NCBI RefSeq assembly: GCF_002854065.1
Contig: NZ_CP024147.1
Length of the DNA stretch: 64,000 bases
From: Escherichia coli
GTDB taxonomy: Bacteria; Pseudomonadota; Gammaproteobacteria; Enterobacterales; Enterobacteriaceae
Reading direction: 5' to 3' (one strand)
Made by a program: the position numbers and the translations under genes. Positions within the stretch are counted from its first letter, which is position 1. Every line of letters starts with the position of its first letter. Under the pieces are notes generated by a model. That model was not told the origin of the DNA, did no database searches, and worked only from the letters and a program-made list of their open reading frames with translations. Of the stretch, positions 4,205 through 54,794 are shown one piece after another.

Positions 4205-4240
4205 TGCTGATAGAAACCATTCTCATTATCATTGTACTGT
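4205..4240 (+). promoter_or_regulatory. Fur-box-like sequence in the feoA upstream region
   Basis: tgctgatagaaaccattctcattatcattg contains a CATTATCATT core resembling the Fur consensus GATAATGATAATCATTATC; AT-rich region about 100 bp upstream of feoA. Confidence 0.35.
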
Positions 4241-4343: not shown

Positions 4344-4571
4344 ATGCAATACACTCCAGATACTGCGTGGAAAATCACTGGCTTTTCCCGTGAAATCAGC
4401 CCGGCATATCGCCAAAAACTGCTTTCTCTTGGCATGTTACCTGGCTCCTCTTTTAATGTGGTGCGCGTCGCTCCACTCGGCGACCCCATTCATATCGAAA
4501 CCCGTCGTGTGAGCCTGGTATTACGCAAAAAAGATCTGGCCTTATTAGAAGTGGAAGCGGTTTCCTGTTAA
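4344..4571 (+). CDS. feoA: Ferrous iron transport protein FeoA (75 aa)
   Basis: [78 protein letters not shown]. Confidence 0.96.
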
Positions 4572-4587
4572 TACGGTGATAACAACA

Positions 4588-6909
4588 ATGAAAAAATTAA
4601 CCATAGGCTTAATTGGTAATCCAAATTCTGGCAAGACAACCTTATTTAACCAGCTCACTGGCGCACGTCAGCGTGTAGGTAACTGGGCTGGCGTTACCGT
4701 CGAACGTAAAGAAGGGCAATTCTCCACCACCGATCATCAGGTCACGCTGGTGGACCTGCCCGGCACCTATTCTCTGACCACCATCTCATCGCAGACCTCG
4801 CTCGATGAGCAAATCGCCTGTCACTACATTTTGAGTGGCGACGCCGACCTGCTGATTAACGTGGTGGATGCGTCTAACCTTGAGCGTAACCTGTACCTGA
4901 CGCTACAACTGCTGGAACTCGGCATTCCCTGCATCGTGGCACTGAACATGCTCGACATTGCCGAGAAGCAAAATATTCGTATTGAAATTGATGCTCTGTC
5001 GGCGCGTCTTGGCTGCCCGGTGATCCCGCTGGTTTCAACCCGTGGTCGCGGTATTGAAGCGCTCAAGCTGGCGATTGATCGCTATAAAGCTAACGAGAAT
5101 GTGGAACTGGTGCATTACGCACAGCCGCTGCTCAACGAAGCAGATTCACTGGCAAAAGTGATGCCTTCCGACATCCCGCTGAAACAACGTCGCTGGCTGG
5201 GCCTGCAAATGCTGGAAGGCGATATCTACAGCCGCGCCTACGCCGGTGAAGCGTCGCAGCATCTTGATGCCGCCCTCGCCCGTCTGCGTAATGAGATGGA
5301 CGATCCGGCGCTGCACATTGCCGATGCGCGTTACCAGTGCATTGCTGCCATCTGTGATGTGGTAAGCAACACCCTGACGGCAGAACCCAGCCGTTTCACC
5401 ACTGCGGTAGATAAAATCGTGCTCAACCGTTTCCTCGGTCTGCCGATTTTCCTCTTTGTGATGTACCTGATGTTCCTGCTGGCTATCAACATCGGCGGGG
5501 CGTTACAGCCGCTGTTTGACGTCGGCTCCGTGGCGCTATTTGTGCATGGTATTCAATGGATTGGCTACACGCTCCACTTCCCGGACTGGCTGACTATCTT
5601 CCTCGCCCAGGGCTTGGGTGGCGGTATTAACACCGTGCTGCCACTGGTGCCGCAGATCGGCATGATGTACCTGTTCCTCTCCTTCCTTGAGGACTCCGGC
5701 TATATGGCGCGTGCAGCGTTTGTGATGGACCGCCTGATGCAGGCGCTGGGCTTGCCGGGGAAATCCTTTGTGCCGCTGATCGTCGGTTTCGGTTGTAACG
5801 TACCGTCGGTAATGGGTGCACGTACACTTGATGCACCGCGTGAACGTCTGATGACCATCATGATGGCACCGTTTATGTCCTGCGGCGCGCGTCTGGCTAT
5901 CTTCGCAGTATTCGCGGCTGCCTTCTTCGGGCAGAACGGTGCGCTGGCGGTCTTCTCGCTGTATATGCTCGGTATCGTGATGGCGGTGCTGACTGGCCTG
6001 ATGCTCAAGTACACCATCATGCGCGGTGAAGCGACGCCGTTTGTCATGGAGCTGCCGGTCTACCATGTACCACACGTTAAAAGCCTGATTATCCAGACCT
6101 GGCAGCGTCTGAAAGGCTTCGTTCTGCGTGCTGGTAAAGTGATTATCATCGTCAGCATTTTCCTGAGCGCTTTCAACAGCTTCTCGTTGAGCGGGAAAAT
6201 CGTCGATAACATCAACGACTCGGCGCTGGCTTCCGTCAGCCGGGTGATCACCCCGGTCTTCAAGCCGATTGGCGTGCATGAAGATAACTGGCAGGCAACA
6301 GTTGGCCTGTTTACGGGTGCAATGGCGAAAGAAGTGGTGGTGGGTACGCTCAACACCCTCTACACCGCAGAAAATATTCAGGACGAAGAGTTCAATCCGG
6401 CGGAATTTAACCTCGGTGAAGAGTTGTTCAGCGCGGTAGATGAAACCTGGCAGAGCCTGAAGGACACCTTCAGCCTTAGCGTACTGATGAACCCCATTGA
6501 AGCTAGCAAAGGCGACGGCGAAATGGGTACCGGGGCGATGGGCGTGATGGATCAGAAATTCGGTAGCGCAGCTGCCGCATACAGCTACCTGATTTTCGTC
6601 CTGCTGTATGTACCGTGCATCTCGGTGATGGGAGCCATCGCCCGTGAATCAAGCCGTGGCTGGATGGGCTTCTCCATCCTGTGGGGGCTGAATATCGCTT
6701 ACTCACTGGCAACATTGTTCTATCAGATCGCCAGCTACAGTCAGCACCCAACTTACAGCCTGGTGTGCATTCTGGCGGTTATCCTGTTTAACATCGTGGT
6801 TATCGGTCTGCTGCGCCGCGCGCGTAGCCGGGTGGATATCGAACTGCTGGCAACCCGTAAGTCGGTAAGCAGTTGCTGCGCAGCCAGCACCACCGGTGAT
6901 TGCCATTAA
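4588..6909 (+). CDS. feoB: Ferrous iron transporter FeoB (773 aa), N-terminal G-domain plus polytopic membrane domain
   Basis: ORF 4576..6909; start set at [21 protein letters not shown] (G1 P-loop motif). Confidence 0.96.
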
Positions 6910-7145
6910 TGGCTTCACTTATTCAGGTGCGTGATTTGCTGGCGTTACGGGGCCGTATGGAAGCGGCCCAGATAAGCCAGACATTGAACACTCCACAGCC
7001 AATGATTAACGCCATGCTGCAACAACTGGAAAGTATGGGCAAAGCCGTGCGGATTCAGGAAGAACCTGACGGCTGCCTCTCCGGCAGTTGTAAAAGCTGC
7101 CCGGAAGGAAAAGCCTGTCTGCGCGAGTGGTGGGCGCTGCGTTAA
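6909..7145 (+). CDS. feoC: FeoC (YhgG), winged-helix Fe-S protein (78 aa)
   Basis: [27 protein letters not shown]...[15 protein letters not shown]; its ATG at 6909 overlaps the feoB TAA stop by 1 nt. Confidence 0.93.
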
Positions 7146-9802: not shown

Positions 9803-10378
9803 ATGATCCGTATTTCCGATGCTGCACAAGCGCACTTTGCCAAACTGCTGGCAAACCAGGAAGAAGGGACACAAATCCGCGTATTTGTGATTAACCCTGG
9901 CACGCCTAACGCTGAATGTGGTGTTTCTTATTGTCCGCCGGATGCCGTGGAAGCCACTGACACTGCCCTGAAATTTGACCTGCTGACCGCGTATGTTGAT
10001 GAGTTAAGCGCTCCTTACCTGGAAGATGCAGAGATCGATTTTGTTACCGACCAGTTGGGTTCTCAGCTAACACTGAAAGCGCCTAACGCCAAAATGCGTA
10101 AAGTGGCAGATGATGCACCACTGATGGAGCGCGTGGAGTATATGCTGCAGTCGCAGATCAACCCACAGCTTGCTGGTCACGGTGGTCGCGTTTCACTGAT
10201 GGAAATCACCGAAGACGGTTACGCCATTCTGCAATTTGGCGGCGGCTGTAACGGTTGTTCCATGGTCGATGTGACGCTGAAAGAAGGGATCGAGAAGCAG
10301 CTACTAAACGAATTCCCGGAGCTGAAAGGTGTGCGCGATCTCACCGAACACCAGCGCGGCGAACACTCCTACTACTAA
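9803..10378 (+). CDS. nfuA: Fe-S cluster carrier protein NfuA (191 aa)
   Basis: [29 protein letters not shown]...; C-terminal CXXC (GGGCNGCSM). Confidence 0.95.
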
Positions 10379-20249: not shown

Positions 20250-20725
20250 CGGCTCCTACTCCCCTAACGTCTGAACATAATCTGGCTGACTTTTGCTGTT
20301 CCGATCACGGGATGAATGAATGGCTAAAAAAGAAAGCATTAAAAAATCACAGCTCCGGTCTGTCTCGTGTTTACGTTATCTGTATTGCCAATACCCGCCA
20401 GGTAATCGGCTATTACTGCCTTTCTACAGGCAGTATTCAACGTAATTTGGCCCCTGGAGCCATGCGACGTAATGCTCCCGAATCGTTGCCTGTTGTCGTA
20501 TTAGGCAGACTGGCAATTGATCAAGCCTGAGCAGGTAAAGGGTTGGGCGTCGCATTGTTGAAAGATGCAGTCTATCGCACAATGTCCATAGCTCAACAGG
20601 TAGGGGTTCGTGCGCTCATTGTTCATGCCTTAGACGATTCAGTACGCAATTTCTATCTGAAGTATGCCTTTGTACCTTCACCATTCCAGTCACTTACCTT
20701 ACTGTATCCCATTACTCTGGAGTAA
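20240..20725 (+). pseudogene. GNAT-family acetyltransferase toxin (TacT/AtaT/KacT-like) interrupted by an in-frame TGA at 20528..20530
   Basis: ORFs 20240..20530 and 20543..20725 are in the same frame; translation ...PLTSEHNLADFCCSDHGMNEWL...VVLGRLAIDQA*AGKGLGVALLKDAV... carries the GNAT acetyl-CoA motif split by the stop. Confidence 0.7.
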
Positions 20726-20774
20726 TTTACCTCTACCGGATAGTCACACTGATGAGTCTGATCCGGGAGGGATT

Positions 20775-21806
<1,032 letters not shown>

Positions 21807-28533: not shown

Positions 28534-28632
28534 TGCCTGATGCGCTACGCTTATCAGGCCTACGTGGTTTATGCAATATGTTGAATTTGCATGATTTTGT
28601 AGGCCTGAGAAGGCGTTCACGCCGCATCAGGA
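28534..28632. repeat. Pair of inverted REP elements (BIME-like) downstream of glpD
   Basis: tgcctgatgcgctacgcttatcaggcctacg and gtaggcctgagaaggcgttcacgccgcatcagg match REP consensus in opposite orientations. Confidence 0.7.
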
Positions 28633-28684: not shown

Positions 28685-29287
28685 TTACCGCAAAGCCCAC
28701 GCCATCATACCCAACGTAACAAAACTCAGGCACGTTCCCCACTCACTCCACTTCCGTATCTGGCTTCTATTTTTGCTACGCCACTGGCAATAATATCCCA
28801 ACGCAAAACCAAGCTGTGCGCTTATTGGACCGATAAAATCCGTCCACGGCTGAGGCCAAAATGGCGAAAAATTCAGGGGTAGCCAGACAACAAGCAGAAA
28901 GAAATTGCGGATACTTTCCAGCAACGCAATTTTCGCTGGCGCGATGTAAAAAATGATATTCCAGAGGATCAACCATAAATAGACCGGTGCGAATACCAAC
29001 CAACAATGGAGCCTGCTTTTCAATTCAGATTGAGTTCTACGAGTAAATTGCCAACCAACGCAACACATTACACAGAAGAAAAGCGCATATTCAGCCGATA
29101 ACCAAAGTTGTAATTGCAGAAGTGAAATACGCCTGATCATGAGCGGGATTGAGAACAGCATTTCCCCCAGAAAACTCAGCGTGATAATACAAGCAGCCAG
29201 CGCAACCACCATCGGCCACACCAACAACGGCACAATAACAAAGCCGAGAAATAACGGATAAATATAAAGTCTGATTATATTCATCAT
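28685..29287 (-). CDS. Polytopic inner-membrane protein, unknown function (200 aa); third gene of the PstS-like operon
   Basis: Hydrophobic ORF MMNIIRLYIYPLFLGFVIVPLLVWPMVVALAACIITLSF... with about 5-6 predicted TM segments; ATG overlaps the upstream gene's stop by 1 nt. Confidence 0.6.
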   Translation of the reverse strand: MMNIIRLYIYPLFLGFVIVPLLVWPMVVALAACIITLSFLGEMLFSIPLMIRRISLLQLQLWLSAEYALFFCVMCCVGWQFTRRTQSELKSRLHCWLVFAPVYLWLILWNIIFYIAPAKIALLESIRNFFLLVVWLPLNFSPFWPQPWTDFIGPISAQLGFALGYYCQWRSKNRSQIRKWSEWGTCLSFVTLGMMAWALR

Positions 29288-30279
29288 TATTGTCCTGATG
29301 ATTCGGGGGATGCTTCATACAGCAGCACATACCCCACATCCTCTACCAACTGTTGCCCCTGCTGACTTATAAACCAGTCAACAAATTTCTGCGTTTCCGG
29401 CGTGGGATTTTCACGCGTCACCATATAGGCATCCACAATGTATGGATAAGTGCCGTTGCGGATATTTTCCTCGGTAGGCGCAACGCCATTTATAGCCAAA
29501 AGTTTAATCTGCTTGCGCATTTTGAGCATATTGTCATTCATACGAGTGACGTAATAGTGGAAGGTGTACCCAATGGAAGATGGCGTGTTTTGATAGTCGG
29601 CAACTTCAGTAATTAAACCGCCCATAAGATCAATCACAGTAGATTTTTTAGCTGGCAGCATTGGGGTGTCTTGCATAACCAATCCCTTCATAATCGTTTG
29701 GCTTCCAGAATCTTCAGGGCGCTGCCAGACTTTTATATGTTCGTCACTACCACCTACTTTATTCCAGCGGCTAGTTTTGCTGCTAAAAATATCTTTAACC
29801 TGGTGCTCAGAGAGAGAATTTACCGGGTTATTAATATCAACGATAAAGACAAAGGCTTCGCGGGCGAAAGCGGTATATTTCAGTTTAACACCCGCTTCTT
29901 CTGCACGTTTTTTCTGTCCTTCCGACGGTTGTGCAACAAAAATAACCGTCGCGGAACCTTTAATCAGACTATCGTAGGCTTCAGCTGTTCGGGTTTGCTG
30001 CAAACCATACGCCTGCCAGGCCAGCGAGGTTCGATCCTTATCTTTTGGCTCGGGTACTAATTTATAATACGCGGAGGCATACAGCGGGTATAAGGCTGTA
30101 GCGCCGTACACTCTCGGCCATCTTGACCAATCATCGCTGTAACGTAATGCAGGTTGCCCCCGCAGAGACGTCAGTCCATGGCTCTCTTCTTCCCTGACGC
30201 TGTTATAGTACCCTTCCCGGTCGACACATCCCGCCAGTAACGCCGTGCCTAATAGTAAAACACCGGTGAATTTATTCAT
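29287..30279 (-). CDS. PstS-like (PBP_like_2 fold) periplasmic-binding lipoprotein (330 aa)
   Basis: ORF 29287..30342; start set at MNKFTGVLLLGTALLAGC (lipobox LAGC); PstS-like motifs GATALYPLY, RPEDSGSQT, SIGYTFHYY. Confidence 0.7.
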   Translation of the reverse strand: MNKFTGVLLLGTALLAGCVDREGYYNSVREEESHGLTSLRGQPALRYSDDWSRWPRVYGATALYPLYASAYYKLVPEPKDKDRTSLAWQAYGLQQTRTAEAYDSLIKGSATVIFVAQPSEGQKKRAEEAGVKLKYTAFAREAFVFIVDINNPVNSLSEHQVKDIFSSKTSRWNKVGGSDEHIKVWQRPEDSGSQTIMKGLVMQDTPMLPAKKSTVIDLMGGLITEVADYQNTPSSIGYTFHYYVTRMNDNMLKMRKQIKLLAINGVAPTEENIRNGTYPYIVDAYMVTRENPTPETQKFVDWFISQQGQQLVEDVGYVLLYEASPESSGQ

Positions 30280-30304
30280 CTCGCTGATTCCTTTCTCTCG
30301 AGCG

Positions 30305-31822
30305 TTATTCCATTGTTGGATACAGCGGCACATATCCCACATCTTCTACCAGACTCTGCCCCTGCGGCGTTAAAAACCATTCGACCAGTTTTTGTGTTTC
30401 TGACGTTGTATTTTCCCTCGTTACCATAAAGGCATCGACGATATAGGGATATTTGCCGTTGCGAATATTTTCCGCAGTCGGTGTAATACCGTTAATCGCT
30501 AGCAGTTTTATATTTTTATCAGCATTCATTTGCGTCGCGTAATAGCGGAAGGTATAGCCTATTGCGTTGTTTGTATTACGGTATTCGGCAACGACTTTAA
30601 TCATTCCCTCCATCACGCTTGCCACTTCCATTTCCTGCGGCGAGATCATGCGGACATTTTTCATGACCTGTGATTGCATCACTGTCTGGCTGCCAGAGTC
30701 TTCCGGGCGCTGCCAGGTCTGGATCTCCTGATCGTTACCGCCAACAGTACGCCAGTTGGTAATTGCACCACTGAAAATGTCACGCACCTGTTGTTCAGTC
30801 AGGGAATTAACCGGATTATCCGCATTGACGATGAAAACGAATGCTTCACGGGCAAAGGGGGTGTACAGCAAAGTGACACCAGATTCCTTTGCACGTTTTT
30901 TTTGCCCACCGGAAGGTTGCGCCACGAAAATAATATCAGCATCGCCCTTAACGATTTTGTTATATGCTTCTGGCGTACGAGAGTTTTCCAGATAATCCCA
31001 AACGTGAAAATCCTCTGGTATTACACTTAATGCATAAAATGCAGAAGCATAAATTGGGTACGCAGCCGTGGCGCCATCGATTCGCGGCCAGTTTTGCCTA
31101 AACTGAATTTGCGGTTTGCCACGCAGCGGCGTCAGTCGATTATTGAGTTTATCGGGTTGCCAGGCCCAGATATCAATATTTTCGCGTACACCGACACCAG
31201 GATTGAGCTGTTTATATAAATAACCCTGATAACCAGCGACAAAACCAAGCATGAGAAGGATAAACAGGAGGGAATTACGGCAACGTAGCCCGGATGTACC
31301 GGTTAAAGGATGTCTGGTTGGCCGGCCGTACCCCAGCGAAAAACTGATATGCGCGCCAACGGGTATAATGACTATCCACCAGTACTCACCTCCGACTACT
31401 GAGACTAACAAAACGCCCAGCCAGGGGAGCATAAGATCAGCCAACCAACCCGATCCCATCTGGTGAAATTGATAATCTGCCAGATGCAGCGCGATTATCC
31501 AGCCAACCAGGATTAATAAAGCGGGTACTAAAAAAAGACATTGTCGCCAGACGGCTATTTCTCTTTTTTCTGGTGCACTATCGCCTGCCCATACTCGCCC
31601 CGAGAAAAATAGCATTAATGCGCCCAGCGCCAGCATAAAAATGTTGAGCAGAAGGTAAATTGTTGGCGTGATAAGGATATTACAAACTTCAATAATACCG
31701 GCAAGTCCGACACCCAGCATAGCAACAACCGCCGCCAAAAATTGCGTCAGTATGGGGATGCCGAAAAAAGTCATTACCAGCGAGGACAAAATCCATTTTC
31801 TGTTTTGCATTATTCTTTCCAT
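30305..31822 (-). CDS. Fusion protein: N-terminal polytopic membrane domain (about 190 aa) plus C-terminal PstS-like binding domain (505 aa)
   Basis: N-terminus hydrophobic (MERIMQNRKWILSSLVMTFFGIPILTQFLAAVVAML...); C-terminal half paralogous to the lipoprotein (GATAAYPIY, RPEDSGSQT, AIGYTFRYY); alternative start at 31810; TATAAT on minus strand at 31840..31845. Confidence 0.65.
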   Translation of the reverse strand: MERIMQNRKWILSSLVMTFFGIPILTQFLAAVVAMLGVGLAGIIEVCNILITPTIYLLLNIFMLALGALMLFFSGRVWAGDSAPEKREIAVWRQCLFLVPALLILVGWIIALHLADYQFHQMGSGWLADLMLPWLGVLLVSVVGGEYWWIVIIPVGAHISFSLGYGRPTRHPLTGTSGLRCRNSLLFILLMLGFVAGYQGYLYKQLNPGVGVRENIDIWAWQPDKLNNRLTPLRGKPQIQFRQNWPRIDGATAAYPIYASAFYALSVIPEDFHVWDYLENSRTPEAYNKIVKGDADIIFVAQPSGGQKKRAKESGVTLLYTPFAREAFVFIVNADNPVNSLTEQQVRDIFSGAITNWRTVGGNDQEIQTWQRPEDSGSQTVMQSQVMKNVRMISPQEMEVASVMEGMIKVVAEYRNTNNAIGYTFRYYATQMNADKNIKLLAINGITPTAENIRNGKYPYIVDAFMVTRENTTSETQKLVEWFLTPQGQSLVEDVGYVPLYPTME

Positions 31823-43512: not shown

Positions 43513-44715
43513 TTACCTGAACTGATAATGACCTTCGCCCAATCGGATAACCCTTCCCTCTTCTTCTGCGCGGTTCAGCCACACACTAATTTGTTCGATG
43601 GTTAAACCAGTACAAGACGCCAGCCTTTCAATACTTATCGATTCCTTTGCAAGGATCGCCAGTTCCGCCACAAAGAGTTGATAAAAATCGACAGGCGTAT
43701 ACGCGGGCATTACTGCGTAATTTGCGTCATCTTCATGCAGCGAAAACAGTTCTGGTTGAGCGTTACGGAGTGCTCTGTCATACATCAGCCCAGGAACGTC
43801 TGGCAGTCTGATCGTCACATTCTCAGCCTGTTCAGCACTCCATGACGCCCCATTTTCTACTAATCGTGAATTGGCTGATTGCATATCCTGATTTGGTTTA
43901 ACCTGCACAGGCAGCCACTGATGTTTTAATGCCTCCATCGCCCCGGTTATCGTTCCACCGGTCATTCCCGCACGTACAACCATTGCGCTTTCAGCAAGGC
44001 AATAAATATATTTATTTCGCGCCATCGCATTGCCGACGGTGAAACGTACCTCTGGGTAAAACGGCGAAATCAACACCAGGTTGCCTGCTATAAGCCCTTC
44101 ACGCCATTTCACTAACGTACTCGTTTTTAACAAGCTATCAGCTAATACGCCAACGGCAGTTCCCCCGGCCTCCAGTACCGACGCCATTGCACATTCATCA
44201 ATACCTCGCGCACCACCAGAGATAACGCAAATCCCCTGTTGGGCCAGTTTCGCGGCCAGTTGTTGGGTATAGCGCAAATCGTCAGTCGGAGCATCTCGCG
44301 AGCCAACAATCGCCATACCTTCCGCTTGCAGTAATGCTTTATTCCCGCAGCCAAATAAAACGGGAGGTGCATCCGTTCGCAATCGGTTTTTCAAGCGAAC
44401 GGGATAATCAGCATCTCCGCGGGTTAAGATCCATAAACCGGCGCGTTGCCACTTATCTACCGCCAACGCCAGACTATGACCACGCGCCAGCAAGCCAAGA
44501 ATACGCTCCTGAGAAATACGCGGATCGCTCCAGCCTGTAAGTTTCTCTTGCGGTTGCGGCACCAGAAGCTCGGCGGGACTGATACGTTGGTGCTTCAGCC
44601 ATAATGCAAACTTCCCCCATTCACTATTACTAAGAGGTTTATACTCACTCGCCGCCGCGCGAGAAAAATCGCTGGTTAGCAGGAGAGTTGCTTGTGCATT
44701 GGCTGAAAGATTCAT
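43513..44715 (-). CDS. DprA/Smf-like Rossmann-fold protein (about 400 aa), candidate antitoxin of a PsyrTA/ShosTA-like module
   Basis: ORF 43513..44808; DprA signature MAIVGSRDAPTDDLRYTQQLAAKLAQQGICVISGGARGIDECAMASVLEAGGTAVGVLADSL; start favoured at MNLSANAQ, whose ATG overlaps the upstream TGA (ATGA-type coupling). Confidence 0.75.
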   Translation of the reverse strand: MNLSANAQATLLLTSDFSRAAASEYKPLSNSEWGKFALWLKHQRISPAELLVPQPQEKLTGWSDPRISQERILGLLARGHSLALAVDKWQRAGLWILTRGDADYPVRLKNRLRTDAPPVLFGCGNKALLQAEGMAIVGSRDAPTDDLRYTQQLAAKLAQQGICVISGGARGIDECAMASVLEAGGTAVGVLADSLLKTSTLVKWREGLIAGNLVLISPFYPEVRFTVGNAMARNKYIYCLAESAMVVRAGMTGGTITGAMEALKHQWLPVQVKPNQDMQSANSRLVENGASWSAEQAENVTIRLPDVPGLMYDRALRNAQPELFSLHEDDANYAVMPAYTPVDFYQLFVAELAILAKESISIERLASCTGLTIEQISVWLNRAEEEGRVIRLGEGHYQFR

Positions 44716-46822
44716 CAATTTTTTACCGAGGTAGAAGCAAGGGCAAGAGGATAAACCGTCGGGCAACCTGCCTGGCGTAACAGTGCTGTCAGAACTGTCA
44801 GCGTCCATGCAGAATCCACGATATCGTCAACCAGCAACGCCGGACCAGGCATCAAAGGAGGGGTAATCACAAACGCCCCGTCGAGATTTTGACACTGGTG
44901 GAAACGGTTTTGCTGCATTTTCTGCGGTGGATTGTCCACGACTTTTTCAATGGCATCAATAATAGGTAAGCCAAGTTTCGCCGCCAGTCGCCGGGCAAAA
45001 TCAGGAACCAGGTCGAGGTGCTTTAATGAAGGAACGCAGCATACCCAGGTTGGTTCAGGATGCGGATTCCAGCGTTGGCGAACCATTTCCGCACATGCCT
45101 CCACCAGTTCATCACTGAATCGCCCCGTTTTTTTCTCCTGTGCTACCTGCTTTCCCCACCCGGAATCTCCCCAACGAGAAAGGATTCGCCCCGTAGATCC
45201 TTGTAAAATCGCAGGCAAGTTCCCTTTAAATCCGTATTGCGTAAAAGCCCCAGCTGCCACCTGTTTATTGAGATTTAATGACAGGTCAGCGTGTTTAATA
45301 AATAAGTTTGCCGCATGGAGTAAGCCGCTATCAATGTCGGGCGACAACAACGGATGCTGAAGACAACTGCTACATTTACCACAATGTTCGGCACCTGGCT
45401 CATCGAGTGCGCGGCGCAGAAATTGCATTTTGCACTCCTTGGTCGTGATATAGCTTTCAACGTCTGCCAGCTCACTTTTTCTCTGATTCATCAAATGGTT
45501 AATTCGTTCATGGTCAGGAGAAAAACTGACAATTGTTCTGCGCCATAATTTCTCGGTATACACCACAGGCGATGGATTTTCAGCTACCAATAATTTCAGT
45601 GCTTTTTCTATTTGCCCATAACGGAGATTCGTCCGTTGTTCAATGCCTCGTAAGGTAAGACCGTCATTCACGCTAAGTACGTTGAGTATTTCATGAATTT
45701 GCGCCTCCGCAGGAAAGGCGCTTTCACGGAAGAATTTATGAATAGCACGGTCTTCACTGCCGCAAAGCAGTATGCCAACAGCAGAATCGATACCGCGACC
45801 GGCACGCCCCACCTGTTGGTAGTAACCAACTATCGAACCTGGCATCTGGTAATGAATAACAAACCCCAAATCCGGTTTGTCAAAGCCCATTCCCAGCGCC
45901 GTTGTCGCAACCAGCACTTTAATTTTATTTGCCAGCAACGCCTGCTCCAGATATTCCCTGGCAGTATTAGAATCTTCCGCGCCTTCACAAGTCACGCCGC
46001 TGTAGTAAGCAAATGCACTGATACCATTTTTCCTTAACCACTCGGCGACAAGTTCGGCATCGCGAGTAGTCAGGGTATAAACAATTCCCGATTTGGAAAA
46101 CTGAGGGAAAACTGAGGGATAACCGTTGCTAACCATGCCAGACGGGATGACTGTTCACCTAAGACTAAGGCATCAAGCGCCAAACTTTCGCGAGCCAGCG
46201 TTCCACGCTGAATCACAATGTCACCCAATTGCTGACGGATATCCTCAACGACACGGTTATTCGCTGTCGCGGTTGTACCCAGAACAGGGGTATTCGCAGG
46301 TAGTTGGCGCAAAATATCTAATATACGTCGGTAATCCGGGCGAAAATCGTGGCCCCAATCAGAGATGCAGTGCGCCTCGTCGACCACAAGCAAGCCAATA
46401 TGATCGGCTATAGGATATAAAACCGTTTCGATAAAGTCCTGGTTTGCCAAACGTTCCGGGGAAACCAGCAAGCAATCGACCTCACCTTGCAGCAACTTAT
46501 CGCTAATGCGCTGCCATTCTTCTCTGTTTGTAGAATTCAACGTTTCAGCCGTAATACCTAACCGTTCAGCGGCGGCAACCTGGTTACGCATCAGGGCAAG
46601 CAAAGGAGAGATGATAATTGTCGGGCCAGCGCCGCGATCGCGGAAGATTTTACTGGCGATGAAGTACACAGCACTTTTCCCCCAGCCAGTGCGTTGGACA
46701 ACCAGCAGTTTTCGCCGTTGGTTCACCACCGCGTCTATGGCTTCCCATTGCCCTTCCCTGAAAGTAGCGGTGGTATTTCCTAACATCCGCTGTAAAAGCA
46801 ATTCAGCTGCGTGCTTTTCCAT
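44715..46822 (-). pseudogene. RecQ-like helicase fused to a C-terminal PRTase domain (PsyrT/RqlH-like toxin candidate), frameshifted by an 11-bp tandem duplication
   Basis: ORF 46070..46822 has helicase motifs I-III (QRTGWGKS, VVDEAHCISDWGHDFRPDYRRI, GTTATA); ORF 44715..46136 in another frame has helicase motifs IV-VI (YQQVGRAGRG) and a PRTase motif (LLVDDIVDSAWT); deleting one repeat copy at 46096..46117 joins them into about 698 aa. Confidence 0.75.
46095..46119. repeat. 11-bp perfect tandem duplication (GAAAACTGAGG x2) inside the helicase gene
   Basis: Forward ...tttgGAAAACTGAGGGAAAACTGAGGgat...; on the coding strand both frames read PQFS across the copies. Confidence 0.9.
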
Positions 46823-50887: not shown

Positions 50888-51009
50888 TTGTATTCGCCCC
50901 CTGAATGATTTCGATGGGCTTAGTGTGGACCCGATCTGCCTGGGATGATAGAGGGTGAAAATTGCCCCCTCTGTTCAAAAAAATTGAACTATTAGAGGGG
51001 CCATCAAAC

Positions 51010-52047
51010 TTACTTCGCGAGAGTCACTGTGGAGGGAGAGGCTTGCTCGAATCCGCGTTCAAGGATTTCCAGATTGGTAAGAACTTCAGATTCCTTGACG
51101 TAATTTGGCGCACCGTGGGTGATGGTTTGATACAACGCATCATAAACGCGCCCGTAATCGCCCATCTCCGGCTTCATCTCTTCTCTGACCGTCACGCCCT
51201 CGTCATTGACATACTCCAGCACACCGACCGAATCATCCGCTGCGAATCCCGGTTCGCCCGGCATAATATTAGCCTTCAGGCTGGTTTCCTGCTGGTCGAT
51301 ACCGTATTTAATAAACGAACCTTTCTTACCGTGAACGATAAATTTCGGATAATCGATTTTCACCAGATGGCTGGTTTTGACGATGGCTTTTAGATCGCCA
51401 TAAAACAGTTGCGCTTCGAAAGTATCGTCAGGATTGGCTTTAATGCGCAGGCTGCGGATGTCATAAGCGACGTGATCCGGGCGACCGAACAGAGAAATAA
51501 TCTGGTCCATCGTATGCACACCAAGGCCATAGAACGCGCCATCCTGCGGCAGCCCAGGTTTGGTTTCTGCCACCGGGCGGTAATAGTCAAAATGGCTTTC
51601 CACTTCGACAATCTCTCCCAGCTTGCCGCTTTCAATCGCTTTTTTCGCCGTCAGGAAGCAGGAATCAAAGCGACGATTCTGATATGGCGTGACGGTCAGC
51701 CCTTTGCTTTTCGCCAGTGCAAACAGCTCTTTCGCCTGCGCAAGTGTCGGAGTGAACGGTTTTTCGACCAGCACATTTTTCCCGGCTTCCAGCGCGCGCT
51801 TCGCGTACTCGAAGTGGCTGTCCGCATGGGTGCAGACAACAACCAGCTTAACATCGGGATCGTTTAGCACTTCGTTGAGATCGCTGGTGAAATGGATATG
51901 AGAGTAAATGGGAGCTTGTTCTTCCGGCTTTGCATGGCGGCGAAAAATATGCGCGACATGCCAGCTATCCTTGCGGTTAAGTACATACGGCAGATGGTAA
52001 CGGGTGGTGCTTTTGCCGAAGCCAATAAAGGCGCAGTTGATGACCAT
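51010..52047 (-). CDS. yhhX: Gfo/Idh/MocA-family NAD(P)-dependent oxidoreductase YhhX (345 aa)
   Basis: 345-aa ORF MVINCAFIGFGKSTTRYHLPYVLNRK... Confidence 0.93.
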   Translation of the reverse strand: MVINCAFIGFGKSTTRYHLPYVLNRKDSWHVAHIFRRHAKPEEQAPIYSHIHFTSDLNEVLNDPDVKLVVVCTHADSHFEYAKRALEAGKNVLVEKPFTPTLAQAKELFALAKSKGLTVTPYQNRRFDSCFLTAKKAIESGKLGEIVEVESHFDYYRPVAETKPGLPQDGAFYGLGVHTMDQIISLFGRPDHVAYDIRSLRIKANPDDTFEAQLFYGDLKAIVKTSHLVKIDYPKFIVHGKKGSFIKYGIDQQETSLKANIMPGEPGFAADDSVGVLEYVNDEGVTVREEMKPEMGDYGRVYDALYQTITHGAPNYVKESEVLTNLEILERGFEQASPSTVTLAK

Positions 52048-52169
52048 GATTTCGTCCTTTTTAAGGTGGTTATTTACACCTTAGCGCAAAGCGGACGTGG
52101 TTCCTACTGGAGTGCGCATAACGAACACAAGCACTTCCCGAGGATAAATTGAGAACGAAAGATCAAAAA

Positions 52170-52259
52170 AAAAGCCAGCACCCGGCTGGCTAAGTAATAC
52201 TGGAAGCAATGTGAGCAATGTCGTGCTTTCAGGTTCTCCGCGAGGGTCTTCCTGATCGC
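52170..52259 (-). ncRNA. ryhB: Iron-responsive small RNA RyhB (90 nt)
   Basis: Minus-strand GCGATCAGGAAGACCCTCGCGGAGAACCTGAAAGCACGACATTGCTCACATTGCTTCCAGTATTACTTAGCCAGCCGGGTGCTGGCTTTT matches RyhB as I recall it, with the terminator hairpin plus T-run. Confidence 0.9.
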
Positions 52260-52261
52260 GA

Positions 52262-52286
52262 GACAATAATAATCATTCTCATTCGC
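52262..52286 (-). promoter_or_regulatory. Fur box overlapping the ryhB promoter
   Basis: Minus-strand GAATGAGAATGATTATTATTGTC resembles the Fur consensus and overlaps a TATTAT -10 placed 7 nt upstream of the RyhB 5' end. Confidence 0.75.
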
Positions 52287-52380
52287 ACTTGTCCAACACT
52301 TTTTGCAAAAAAATGCATTTGACTCGCATTCGAAAGTCAATGATGTTGAAAGGGACTTTTACCCCAAAGAGGACAAAGGA

Positions 52381-52869
52381 ATGAGTGAGATAGTGATACG
52401 CCATGCTGAAACGCGCGATTACGAGGCCATCAGGCAGATTCACGCCCAGCCGGAGGTGTATTGCAACACACTACAACTACCTCATCCTTCGGAAGGCTGG
52501 TGGCCAGAAAGATTGAAAGATCGCCAGGGTTTTAAACAACTGGTTGCCTGCATTGATGGCATCGTAGTGGGTCATCTTTTCATTGAGGCTTATCAAGGCC
52601 CACGCCGCAGTCATGTTGCAACTTTTGGTATCTGTGTTGACTCCCGCTGGCACAACCGCGGCATCGCCAGCGCCCTGATCCGCGAATTGATTGAAATGTG
52701 CGACAACTGGTTACGGATAGATCGTATTGAGTTGACGGTGTTTGCGGATAACGCCCCGGCAATCACAGTCTATAAAAAATTCGGATTTCACATAGAAGGC
52801 ACCGGCAAAAATTACGCTTTTCGTAATGGTGAATATGTCGATGCGTATTATATGGCGCGGGTGAAATAG
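52381..52869 (+). CDS. yhhY: GNAT-family N-acetyltransferase YhhY (162 aa)
   Basis: ORF 52303..52869; start set at MSEIVIRHAETRDYEAIRQIHAQPEV. Confidence 0.9.
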   Translation: MSEIVIRHAETRDYEAIRQIHAQPEVYCNTLQLPHPSEGWWPERLKDRQGFKQLVACIDGIVVGHLFIEAYQGPRRSHVATFGICVDSRWHNRGIASALIRELIEMCDNWLRIDRIELTVFADNAPAITVYKKFGFHIEGTGKNYAFRNGEYVDAYYMARVK

Positions 52870-52894
52870 AGAATTTGCAATCTAAGTTTGTCAT

Positions 52895-52925
52895 TTAAGC
52901 CCTCACCTACCGGGAGAGGGCTTAA
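52895..52925. terminator. Hairpin between convergent yhhY and ggt
   Basis: TTAAGCCCTC-acctaccggg-GAGGGCTTAA inverted repeat in the 60-bp gap. Confidence 0.45.
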
Positions 52926-52929
52926 GATA

Positions 52930-54675
52930 TTAATACCCCGCCGTTAAATCATCCACCGAGCGCGGGTCGGATGCGCCGTACAACTCACCGTCCGGCCCAA
53001 CCATAATGCTTTGTGTACTGCCCATCGCCTCTTTCAGCGCCACTTTCTGACCTTTTGCTTCCAGCAGCTTGAGCGTATCCGGGCTAAACCCTTTTTCGAC
53101 ACGCAGCTCGTCCGGCAACCACTGATGGTGGAAACGCGGCGCATTGGTCGCTTCGGCGACATTCATACCATAATCGATGCTATTCACCACCATTTGAAGC
53201 ACGGTGGTAATGATCCGGCTCCCGCCAGGGCTACCGGTGACCAGCCAGGTTTTACCGTCTTTCACCACAATGGTGGGTGACATCGATGACAGCGGGCGTT
53301 TGTTCGGCCCGACGGCGTTGGCATCACCGCCCACCAGCCCATAAATGTTCGGTACGCCCGGTTTGGCGGAGAAATCATCCATCTGGTTATTAAGCAGAAT
53401 ACCGCTCTCGCCCGCGACAATGCCCGTACCGAAGGTGGTGTTCAGCGTATAGGTCACCGCCACCGCGTTACCATCTTTATCCACCACTGAGTAATGGGTA
53501 GTTTGATTACTCTCATAAGGCGCAAGCTTACCAGGGCGAATCTCGCTGGACGGTTTCGCTTTATTGATATCGATTTGCTCGGCAATAGATTTGGCATAGG
53601 CTTTATTGGTCAGCGCCTGCCACGGGACTTTGACAAAATCCGGGTCGCCAAGATATTCCGAGCGGTCAGCGTAGGCATATTTCTCCGCTTCTGCCATGAT
53701 CTGCATCGCGTCGGCGCTGCCAAAACCGTATTTCTTCATATCGAAGTTTTCCAGAATATTGAGGATTTGTACGATATGGATCCCGCCGGAGGATGGCGGT
53801 GGCATGGAGTAAACCTGATACCCGCGATAATCGCCGCTTATCGGTGTGCGTTCGACTGCTTTATACGCCGCTAAATCTTCTTTAGTGATCAGGCCACCGT
53901 TTTTCTGCATCTCCTGGGCAATCTGTTCCGCTATCGTGCCTTTGTAGAATTCGTCCGGGCCGTTTTCGGCAATCATCTCCAGGTTCTTTGCCAGGTTCGC
54001 CTGCACCAGCTTGTCGCCCTTTTTCAGCGGCTCGCCCTCTTTCCAGAAGATAGCCTTGCTGTTTTCGTGATTCGGCAGCACTTCGCTCCCGTAGGTTTTG
54101 AGATCGTCAGCCAGCGCGTCGTTAACGATAAAACCATCGCGTGCCAGTTTAAACGCTGGCTGCACCACTTTGTTCAACGGCATTGTGCCGTATTTATCCA
54201 ACGCCAGCGAGAAACCAGCGACCGTACCGGGCGTGCCGGAAGCCAGATGCGAAGTGAGTGATTTTTTGCTGTCCGGGTTGCCCTGGTCATCGAGAAACAT
54301 ATCGCGGGTCGCTTTGGCGGGTGCCATTTCGCGGAAATCGATAGCGGTGGTATTGCCATTTTTCGAGCGGATCAGCATAAAACCACCACCGCCCAGATTC
54401 CCTGCCTGCGGATGCGTTACCGCCAGCGCGTAGCCCACAGCCACGGCGGCATCAACGGCATTCCCGCCCTCCTTGAGGATATCCACCCCCACCTGAGTGG
54501 CAGTAGCATCTACAGATGCCACCATCCCCTGTTTCGCGCGTACCGGATGAAAGACATCTTCCTCCACGCCGTAAGAAACAGGAGACGGCGCAGGTGGCGC
54601 GGCTACCGTACTAAAACAACTTCCTGAGAGCAGAGCAGCAATGGCCACCCGGCGTAAAAACGTCGGTTTTATCAT
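52930..54675 (-). CDS. ggt: Gamma-glutamyltranspeptidase Ggt (about 580 aa)
   Basis: ORF 52930..54702; start set at MIKPTFLRRVAIAALLSGSCFS (signal peptide); autoprocessing Thr in ...QTTHYSVVD... Confidence 0.94.
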   Translation of the reverse strand: MIKPTFLRRVAIAALLSGSCFSTVAAPPAPSPVSYGVEEDVFHPVRAKQGMVASVDATATQVGVDILKEGGNAVDAAVAVGYALAVTHPQAGNLGGGGFMLIRSKNGNTTAIDFREMAPAKATRDMFLDDQGNPDSKKSLTSHLASGTPGTVAGFSLALDKYGTMPLNKVVQPAFKLARDGFIVNDALADDLKTYGSEVLPNHENSKAIFWKEGEPLKKGDKLVQANLAKNLEMIAENGPDEFYKGTIAEQIAQEMQKNGGLITKEDLAAYKAVERTPISGDYRGYQVYSMPPPSSGGIHIVQILNILENFDMKKYGFGSADAMQIMAEAEKYAYADRSEYLGDPDFVKVPWQALTNKAYAKSIAEQIDINKAKPSSEIRPGKLAPYESNQTTHYSVVDKDGNAVAVTYTLNTTFGTGIVAGESGILLNNQMDDFSAKPGVPNIYGLVGGDANAVGPNKRPLSSMSPTIVVKDGKTWLVTGSPGGSRIITTVLQMVVNSIDYGMNVAEATNAPRFHHQWLPDELRVEKGFSPDTLKLLEAKGQKVALKEAMGSTQSIMVGPDGELYGASDPRSVDDLTAGY

Positions 54676-54794
54676 CGTTATTCTCCAGAGATTAAGGGGC
54701 AACCCCAGCTAAGCCTGGTATATAACTCTGAATTAATCCTGATGATTGCAGGAAAGGAGTAAACTTAAAGAATATCTTCAGAGGAGGATACGCG

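Follow-up and report, generated by a model that had tools for sequence, protein, structure and literature searches.

An intact ryhB small RNA locus with an overlapping Fur box between yhhX and yhhY in Escherichia coli

The window, by which we mean the whole 64,000-nucleotide stretch of E. coli DNA that was analysed, carries the small RNA (sRNA) gene ryhB in the 333-bp intergenic region between yhhX and yhhY. By exact string search, the minus strand of 51900-52600 reads GCGATCAGGAAGACCCTCGCGGAGAACCTGAAAGCACGACATTGCTCACATTGCTTCCAGTATTACTTAGCCAGCCGGGTGCTGGC, then nine T, with the first base at 52259. The features of the locus are as follows.

51010-52047, minus strand: yhhX (oxidoreductase), downstream of ryhB and on the same strand; from the ORF list and RefSeq.
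52081-52266, minus strand: mechanical ORF of 61 aa with a TTG start; from the ORF list.
52104-52340, minus strand: mechanical ORF of 78 aa with a TTG start; from the ORF list.
52165-52259, minus strand: ryhB sRNA gene, RNA start at 52259 by exact string match.
52165-52173, minus strand: T-tract of 9 T (the U-tract of the RNA), RNA nt 87-95; read from the sequence.
52173-52191, minus strand: Rho-independent terminator hairpin, RNA nt 69-87, 7-bp stem with 5 G-C pairs and a 5-nt loop; from the terminator scan.
52214-52222, minus strand: pairing core, RyhB nt 38-46 (GACAUUGCU), complementary to the sodB start-codon region.
52262-52280, no strand assigned: Fur box, -21 to -3, 16/19 matches to GATAATGATAATCATTATC, spanning the whole -10 hexamer.
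52266-52271, minus strand: -10 hexamer TATTAT, -12 to -7 from the RNA start; from the promoter scan, identical in K-12.
52268-52286, no strand assigned: second, weaker Fur-box-like match, -27 to -9, 14/19 (5 mismatches), overlapping the first at an offset of 6 bp.
52290-52295, minus strand: -35 hexamer TGGACA, -36 to -31 from the RNA start; from the promoter scan, identical in K-12.
52381-52869, plus strand: yhhY (N-acetyltransferase), divergent from ryhB; from the ORF list and RefSeq.

Neighbouring genes were annotated from the RefSeq record of strain CUWW06, which is 100% identical over the compared stretches, and from K-12. Both sources, together with the ORF list, agree with the initial annotation that yhhX and yhhY flank the sRNA gene. 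The 3' end lies at 52170 for the 90-nt form of the RNA and at 52165 for the 95-nt extent annotated in K-12. The initial annotation had described an intact 90-nt RyhB on the minus strand, and counting from +1 at 52259 to nt 90 at 52170 arrives at exactly its lower coordinate.

To assign the RNA to a family, the whole window was scanned against Rfam 15 at the gathering threshold. RF00057 (RyhB) matched once, at the canonical yhhX-yhhY position (52230-52166, minus strand), with a score of 83.1 bits, an E-value of 3.6e-14 and coverage of model positions 1-67 of 67; the gathering score of this family is 55 bits. A permissive E-value search of 51000-53500 found no RNA families besides RyhB. As reference we used K-12 MG1655 3579000-3583000, which carries the curated ncRNA ryhB (b4451) between yhhX and yhhY. 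When window positions 52140-52400 (minus strand) were aligned to MG1655 ryhB, no mismatch appeared in the RNA, promoter, Fur box or terminator; the 95-nt annotated gene and no fewer than 100 bp of upstream sequence are 100% identical. The locus differs from K-12 by 3 SNPs in flanking intergenic sequence, none of them in the gene or promoter. The Rfam search and the K-12 alignment were the two checks proposed with the initial annotation, and both bear out its assignment to RyhB.

Exactly one sigma-70-like promoter, that of ryhB, was found in 51900-52600 by a consensus scan, a crude match that weak or non-sigma-70 promoters would escape. Its hexamers match the consensus at 10/12 positions and are separated by an 18-bp spacer, with the -10 hexamer ending 7 nt upstream of the RNA start. 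The TATTAT -10 reported earlier was recovered at 52271-52266 and lies, with the Fur box, inside the initially annotated interval; the -35 hexamer falls just beyond its upper coordinate, 52286. Fur boxes were sought with the 19-bp consensus GATAATGATAATCATTATC, and chance levels were taken from shuffled sequence. The site at 52262-52280, with 3 mismatches, is the sole site of this quality in 64 kb (0.01 expected from shuffles), and it remains the only one when up to 4 mismatches are admitted. The overlapping Fur box of the initial annotation is thus present, and it covers the -10 hexamer. A Fur box lying over the -10 hexamer and reaching -3 has the geometry expected for repression through promoter occlusion, and we predict this mode of control here. 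In K-12, overlapping Fur sites are clustered directly before ryhB, the best scoring 25.2 bits; Fur binding to an oligonucleotide of the promoter was confirmed by gel shift, and the same authors cite a demonstration of ryhB repression by Fur (Chen et al. 2007, PMC2189734). The 14/19 match at 52268-52286 is consistent with this published cluster.

A terminator scan of 51900-52600 likewise returned exactly one terminator-like site, at the RyhB 3' end. As previously claimed, it consists of a hairpin (7-bp stem, 52191-52173) and a U-tract, encoded by the 9 T that follow. A terminator with polyU constitutes an Hfq-binding module (Morita et al. 2015). The hairpin is also present in the Rfam consensus structure and in the minimum-free-energy fold of RyhB, where it follows a 5' stem and a central stem-loop. 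Compared with shuffled sequence, the RyhB fold showed no extra stability (z = -0.67), which is usual for trans-acting sRNAs with an open seed region.

Taken together, the data identify the locus, with near certainty, as canonical E. coli ryhB, predicted to encode an Hfq-dependent sRNA of about 90 nt from a sigma-70 promoter whose -10 region lies under a Fur box. Judged by its sequence, this is an already known gene rather than new biology, and the copy is identical to the reference; RyhB ranks among the most thoroughly characterised sRNAs of bacteria.

Two mechanical ORFs, of 61 aa and 78 aa, overlap the ryhB locus, and a reading in which one of them encodes a small protein in place of a noncoding RNA was considered. 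However, the RNA begins at 52259, downstream of both TTG starts, and each ORF extends through the intrinsic terminator; the RyhB RNA, as read from the sequence, has no AUG. Neither ORF has a Pfam match, no feature is annotated under the match in 12 E. coli genomes among the matches listed, and the conservation of the locus is accounted for by the covariance-model match. With starts outside the transcript and no Pfam match, the protein-coding reading is effectively refuted, and we give it almost no credence. The initial annotation had stated that the RNA is absent from the six-frame track and is not a protein ORF. The second part stands; the first needs a caveat, as the two mechanical ORFs do overlap the locus.

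The arrangement of ryhB and yhhX raises a further question about the transcript. Since yhhX lies on the same strand, with its start codon 117 bp past the ryhB T-tract, ryhB might serve mainly as a 5' leader, under Fur control, of an operon with yhhX, in which readthrough supplies yhhX and the terminator is a regulated attenuator. The consensus scan of 51900-52600 revealed no further sigma-70-like promoter, although so crude a scan could miss weak or non-sigma-70 promoters of yhhX. The gene yhhX was first picked up as a Fur-titration clone, and readthrough at the ryhB terminator is frequent on plasmids (Morita et al. 2015). Against this, the same study states that co-transcription of ryhB and yhhX "has not been shown experimentally", and reports that iron depletion enhances ryhB termination, exactly when the promoter is active (Morita et al. 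2015). Strong coupling of ryhB and yhhX is disfavoured because termination is enhanced under iron depletion, and we consider the leader reading improbable, though it is compatible with, and complementary to, a role of RyhB as a trans-acting sRNA. A related proposal, that transcription from the ryhB promoter may read through the terminator and so also drive yhhX, is similarly doubtful. If true, the uncharacterised oxidoreductase YhhX would be Fur- and iron-regulated and physically coupled to RyhB, as setA is to sgrS, and the ryhB terminator would set the ratio of sRNA to mRNA.

Returning to ryhB as a trans-acting sRNA gene, complementarity to a target was assessed with sodB sequence taken from K-12. 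RyhB nt 38-46, which fall where the Rfam model is most conserved, form a 9-nt perfect Watson-Crick complement of K-12 sodB -4 to +5 (AGCAAUGUC), across the start codon. Taken alone, this complementarity is modestly unlikely, as 25 of 1000 shuffles attain 9 nt. Pairing of the RyhB core with sodB is functional according to the literature. Whole-molecule duplex energies were also calculated. RNAduplex gave -34.8 kcal/mol for RyhB and the sodB 5' region; shuffled sequences averaged -28.0 (sd 4.4), and 30 of 500 did as well. Ten genes of the window, feoA, nfuA, yhhX and yhhY among them, were treated in the same way through their 5' regions. The duplexes were long and unspecific, and unrelated genes such as ggt and rpnA outscored sodB. 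These energies did not discriminate targets and were dropped in favour of the exact-complementarity test.

In the proposed mechanism, Fur-Fe2+ would sit on the box when iron is plentiful and block ryhB transcription; when iron is scarce, Fur would leave the DNA and RyhB would be produced. The transcript would stop at the intrinsic terminator, and Hfq would bind the hairpin and U-tail formed there. The conserved single-stranded core could then pair with mRNAs of non-essential iron-using proteins at their translation-initiation regions; the targets include sodB, sdhCDAB, acnA/B, fumA, ftnA and bfr. Such pairing would block translation and lead to RNase E-dependent decay, and iron would be spared. 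For RyhB, repression by Fur, binding and stabilisation by Hfq, the target set and RNase E decay are established (Massé and Gottesman 2002, later work). From the identity of this allele to that of K-12 and from published work, we infer that iron-starvation induction, Fur repression, Hfq binding and target decay would also occur in this strain.

The distribution of the locus was examined in 5426 complete E. coli genomes. A 136-bp segment containing the promoter and gene had a match in 5424/5426, with at least 99% identity in 5413. The surrounding 301-bp region also had a match in 5424/5426, with at least 99% identity in 1169; over these 301 bp the matches were mostly 95-99% identical, and all E. 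coli matches were chromosomal. Sequence conservation is markedly higher in the RyhB RNA and promoter than in the adjoining flanks. These data bear on whether ryhB might be a decayed or silent relic in this strain. The locus is near-invariant in the 5413 genomes, and from promoter to terminator, RNA and Fur box included, the sequence does not differ from the functional K-12 allele. The relic reading is excluded because of this complete identity to a functional allele, and its likelihood is negligible.

RefSeq has no feature annotated at the ryhB locus in the examined E. coli genomes other than K-12. This missing annotation is a pipeline gap and not absence of the gene. A scan of raw sequence therefore finds a genuine regulator that is missing from most automated gene tables, and the value of the result is an annotation point only.

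The window also contains the feoABC operon, at the following positions.

4344-4571, plus strand: feoA.
4588-6909, plus strand: feoB.
6909-7145, plus strand: feoC.

The initial annotation had placed ryhB about 48 kb from feoABC, and the distance from the feoA start to the ryhB 3' end is 47.8 kb (45-48 kb for the separation of feoABC and ryhB). In K-12 the interval is 40.8 kb; strain-specific insertions between the loci account for the additional ~7 kb in the window. About 35 unrelated genes lie between feoABC and ryhB (mal, rtc, glp, glg, asd, gnt and others), and Fur-box-like matches upstream of feoA are weak, reaching 13/19 at 4212-4236. A functional link between feoABC and ryhB is unsupported, given the ~35 intervening genes and a distance that differs by strain. 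The presence of feoABC and ryhB in one window reflects the E. coli chromosome map, with no sign of a functional unit. A third iron-related locus, nfuA (Fe-S cluster carrier; 9803-10378, plus strand), lies 2.7 kb downstream of feoC.

Several other segments of the window differ from K-12. Beside ryhB, yhhY here adjoins ggt (52930-54702, minus strand), whereas K-12 has yhhZ-yrhA::IS1E-yrhD-yrhB in between. Comparison of K-12 3581627-3585080 with window 52870-52930 gives ~3.4 kb extra in K-12, where yhhZ is a putative endonuclease, and the segment beside ryhB is variable. Between malT and rtcA, at ~20480-21240 on the plus strand (mapped from CUWW06 4319480-4320234), there is a DUF1778 / GNAT N-acetyltransferase pair that K-12 lacks and that resembles a type II toxin-antitoxin module; in CUWW06, the annotation places an internal stop in the GNAT gene. 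Between glpD and glgP, K-12 has yzgL alone, and the window has, at ~28685-31822 on the minus strand, a three-gene island for two PstS-family phosphate-binding-like proteins and a hypothetical protein. Its 505-aa ORF (30305-31822) is uninterrupted in the window; in CUWW06 an IS1 element splits it, and the 777-bp coordinate offset of CUWW06 corresponds to IS1 plus a 9-bp target duplication. At the edge of this PstS-like island, in intergenic sequence just downstream of glpD (coordinates mapped to CUWW06), lies a match to the ES036 (CssrF) sRNA, RF02751, at 28556-28598 on the minus strand; it covers the full model (1-43) with an E-value of 2e-4 and is barely above threshold at 39.3 bits (gathering score 37.6). 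Between yhgN and gntU, at ~44000-46800 on the minus strand, the window carries a DprA-like gene and a RecQ-family helicase gene, and K-12 has nothing there. The helicase gene is annotated as frameshifted in CUWW06 and is apparently interrupted by a ~1.2-kb insertion in strain 100416.

RyhB-like sequences were also matched in plasmid and phage collections, and these were rejected as mobile copies of RyhB; they have no bearing on the window. The plasmid-collection matches are chromosomes filed as plasmids, or replicons with chromosomal-type genes and the second paralogue of Klebsiella or Enterobacter. Paralogues on plasmid-filed records lie at 2438-2501 (record L008), 2498-2561 (L009) and 2498-2561 (L010). 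A 10.9-kb Enterobacter roggenkampii plasmid has its paralogue beside diguanylate cyclase genes with IS903B nearby, and two Klebsiella pneumoniae replicons of ~220-230 kb with a paralogue carry chromosomal-type genes (trpBA, fiu). The plasmid-filed copies are probably each genus's second RyhB gene, carried on chromosomal DNA that was captured or mis-assigned, and they have only the core and the terminator architecture in common with the window RyhB. In the phage collection, the matched records were either unannotated 2-kb fragments or genomic contigs of Salmonella. Two Salmonella genomic contigs contain RyhB-like sequence at 87.7% and 91.5% identity. Records OR845464.1 and OR851358.1 ("Escherichia phage ECO95 1-6-1" and "Salmonella phage S.Kent 1-2-1"), unannotated and ~2 kb long, contain RyhB-like sequence with 88.5% identity to the window, and they are likely fragments of host DNA and not phage genes.

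Among known systems, the closest counterpart is ryhB of K-12 MG1655, which has the same RNA, -35 and -10 hexamers, Fur box, terminator, flanking genes and orientation. The second RyhB paralogues of other Enterobacteriaceae (Salmonella RyhB-2/IsrE and the Klebsiella and Enterobacter copies) share the core (ACGACAUUGCUCACAUUGCUUCCAGUAU) and a terminator hairpin with a U-tail, and those of Klebsiella and Enterobacter match RF00057 at 70-74 bits. They differ in the 5' part, in the sequence of the terminator stem and in context, lying near fiu in Klebsiella and beside diguanylate cyclase genes in Enterobacter. Functional analogues exist in other phyla and orders: PrrF1/2 of Pseudomonas, IsrR of Staphylococcus, described in PMC9410917, and FsrA of Bacillus are Fur-repressed sRNAs that lower iron-using proteins. 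Their logic is that of RyhB, but their sequences and structures are unrelated to it and fall outside RF00057.
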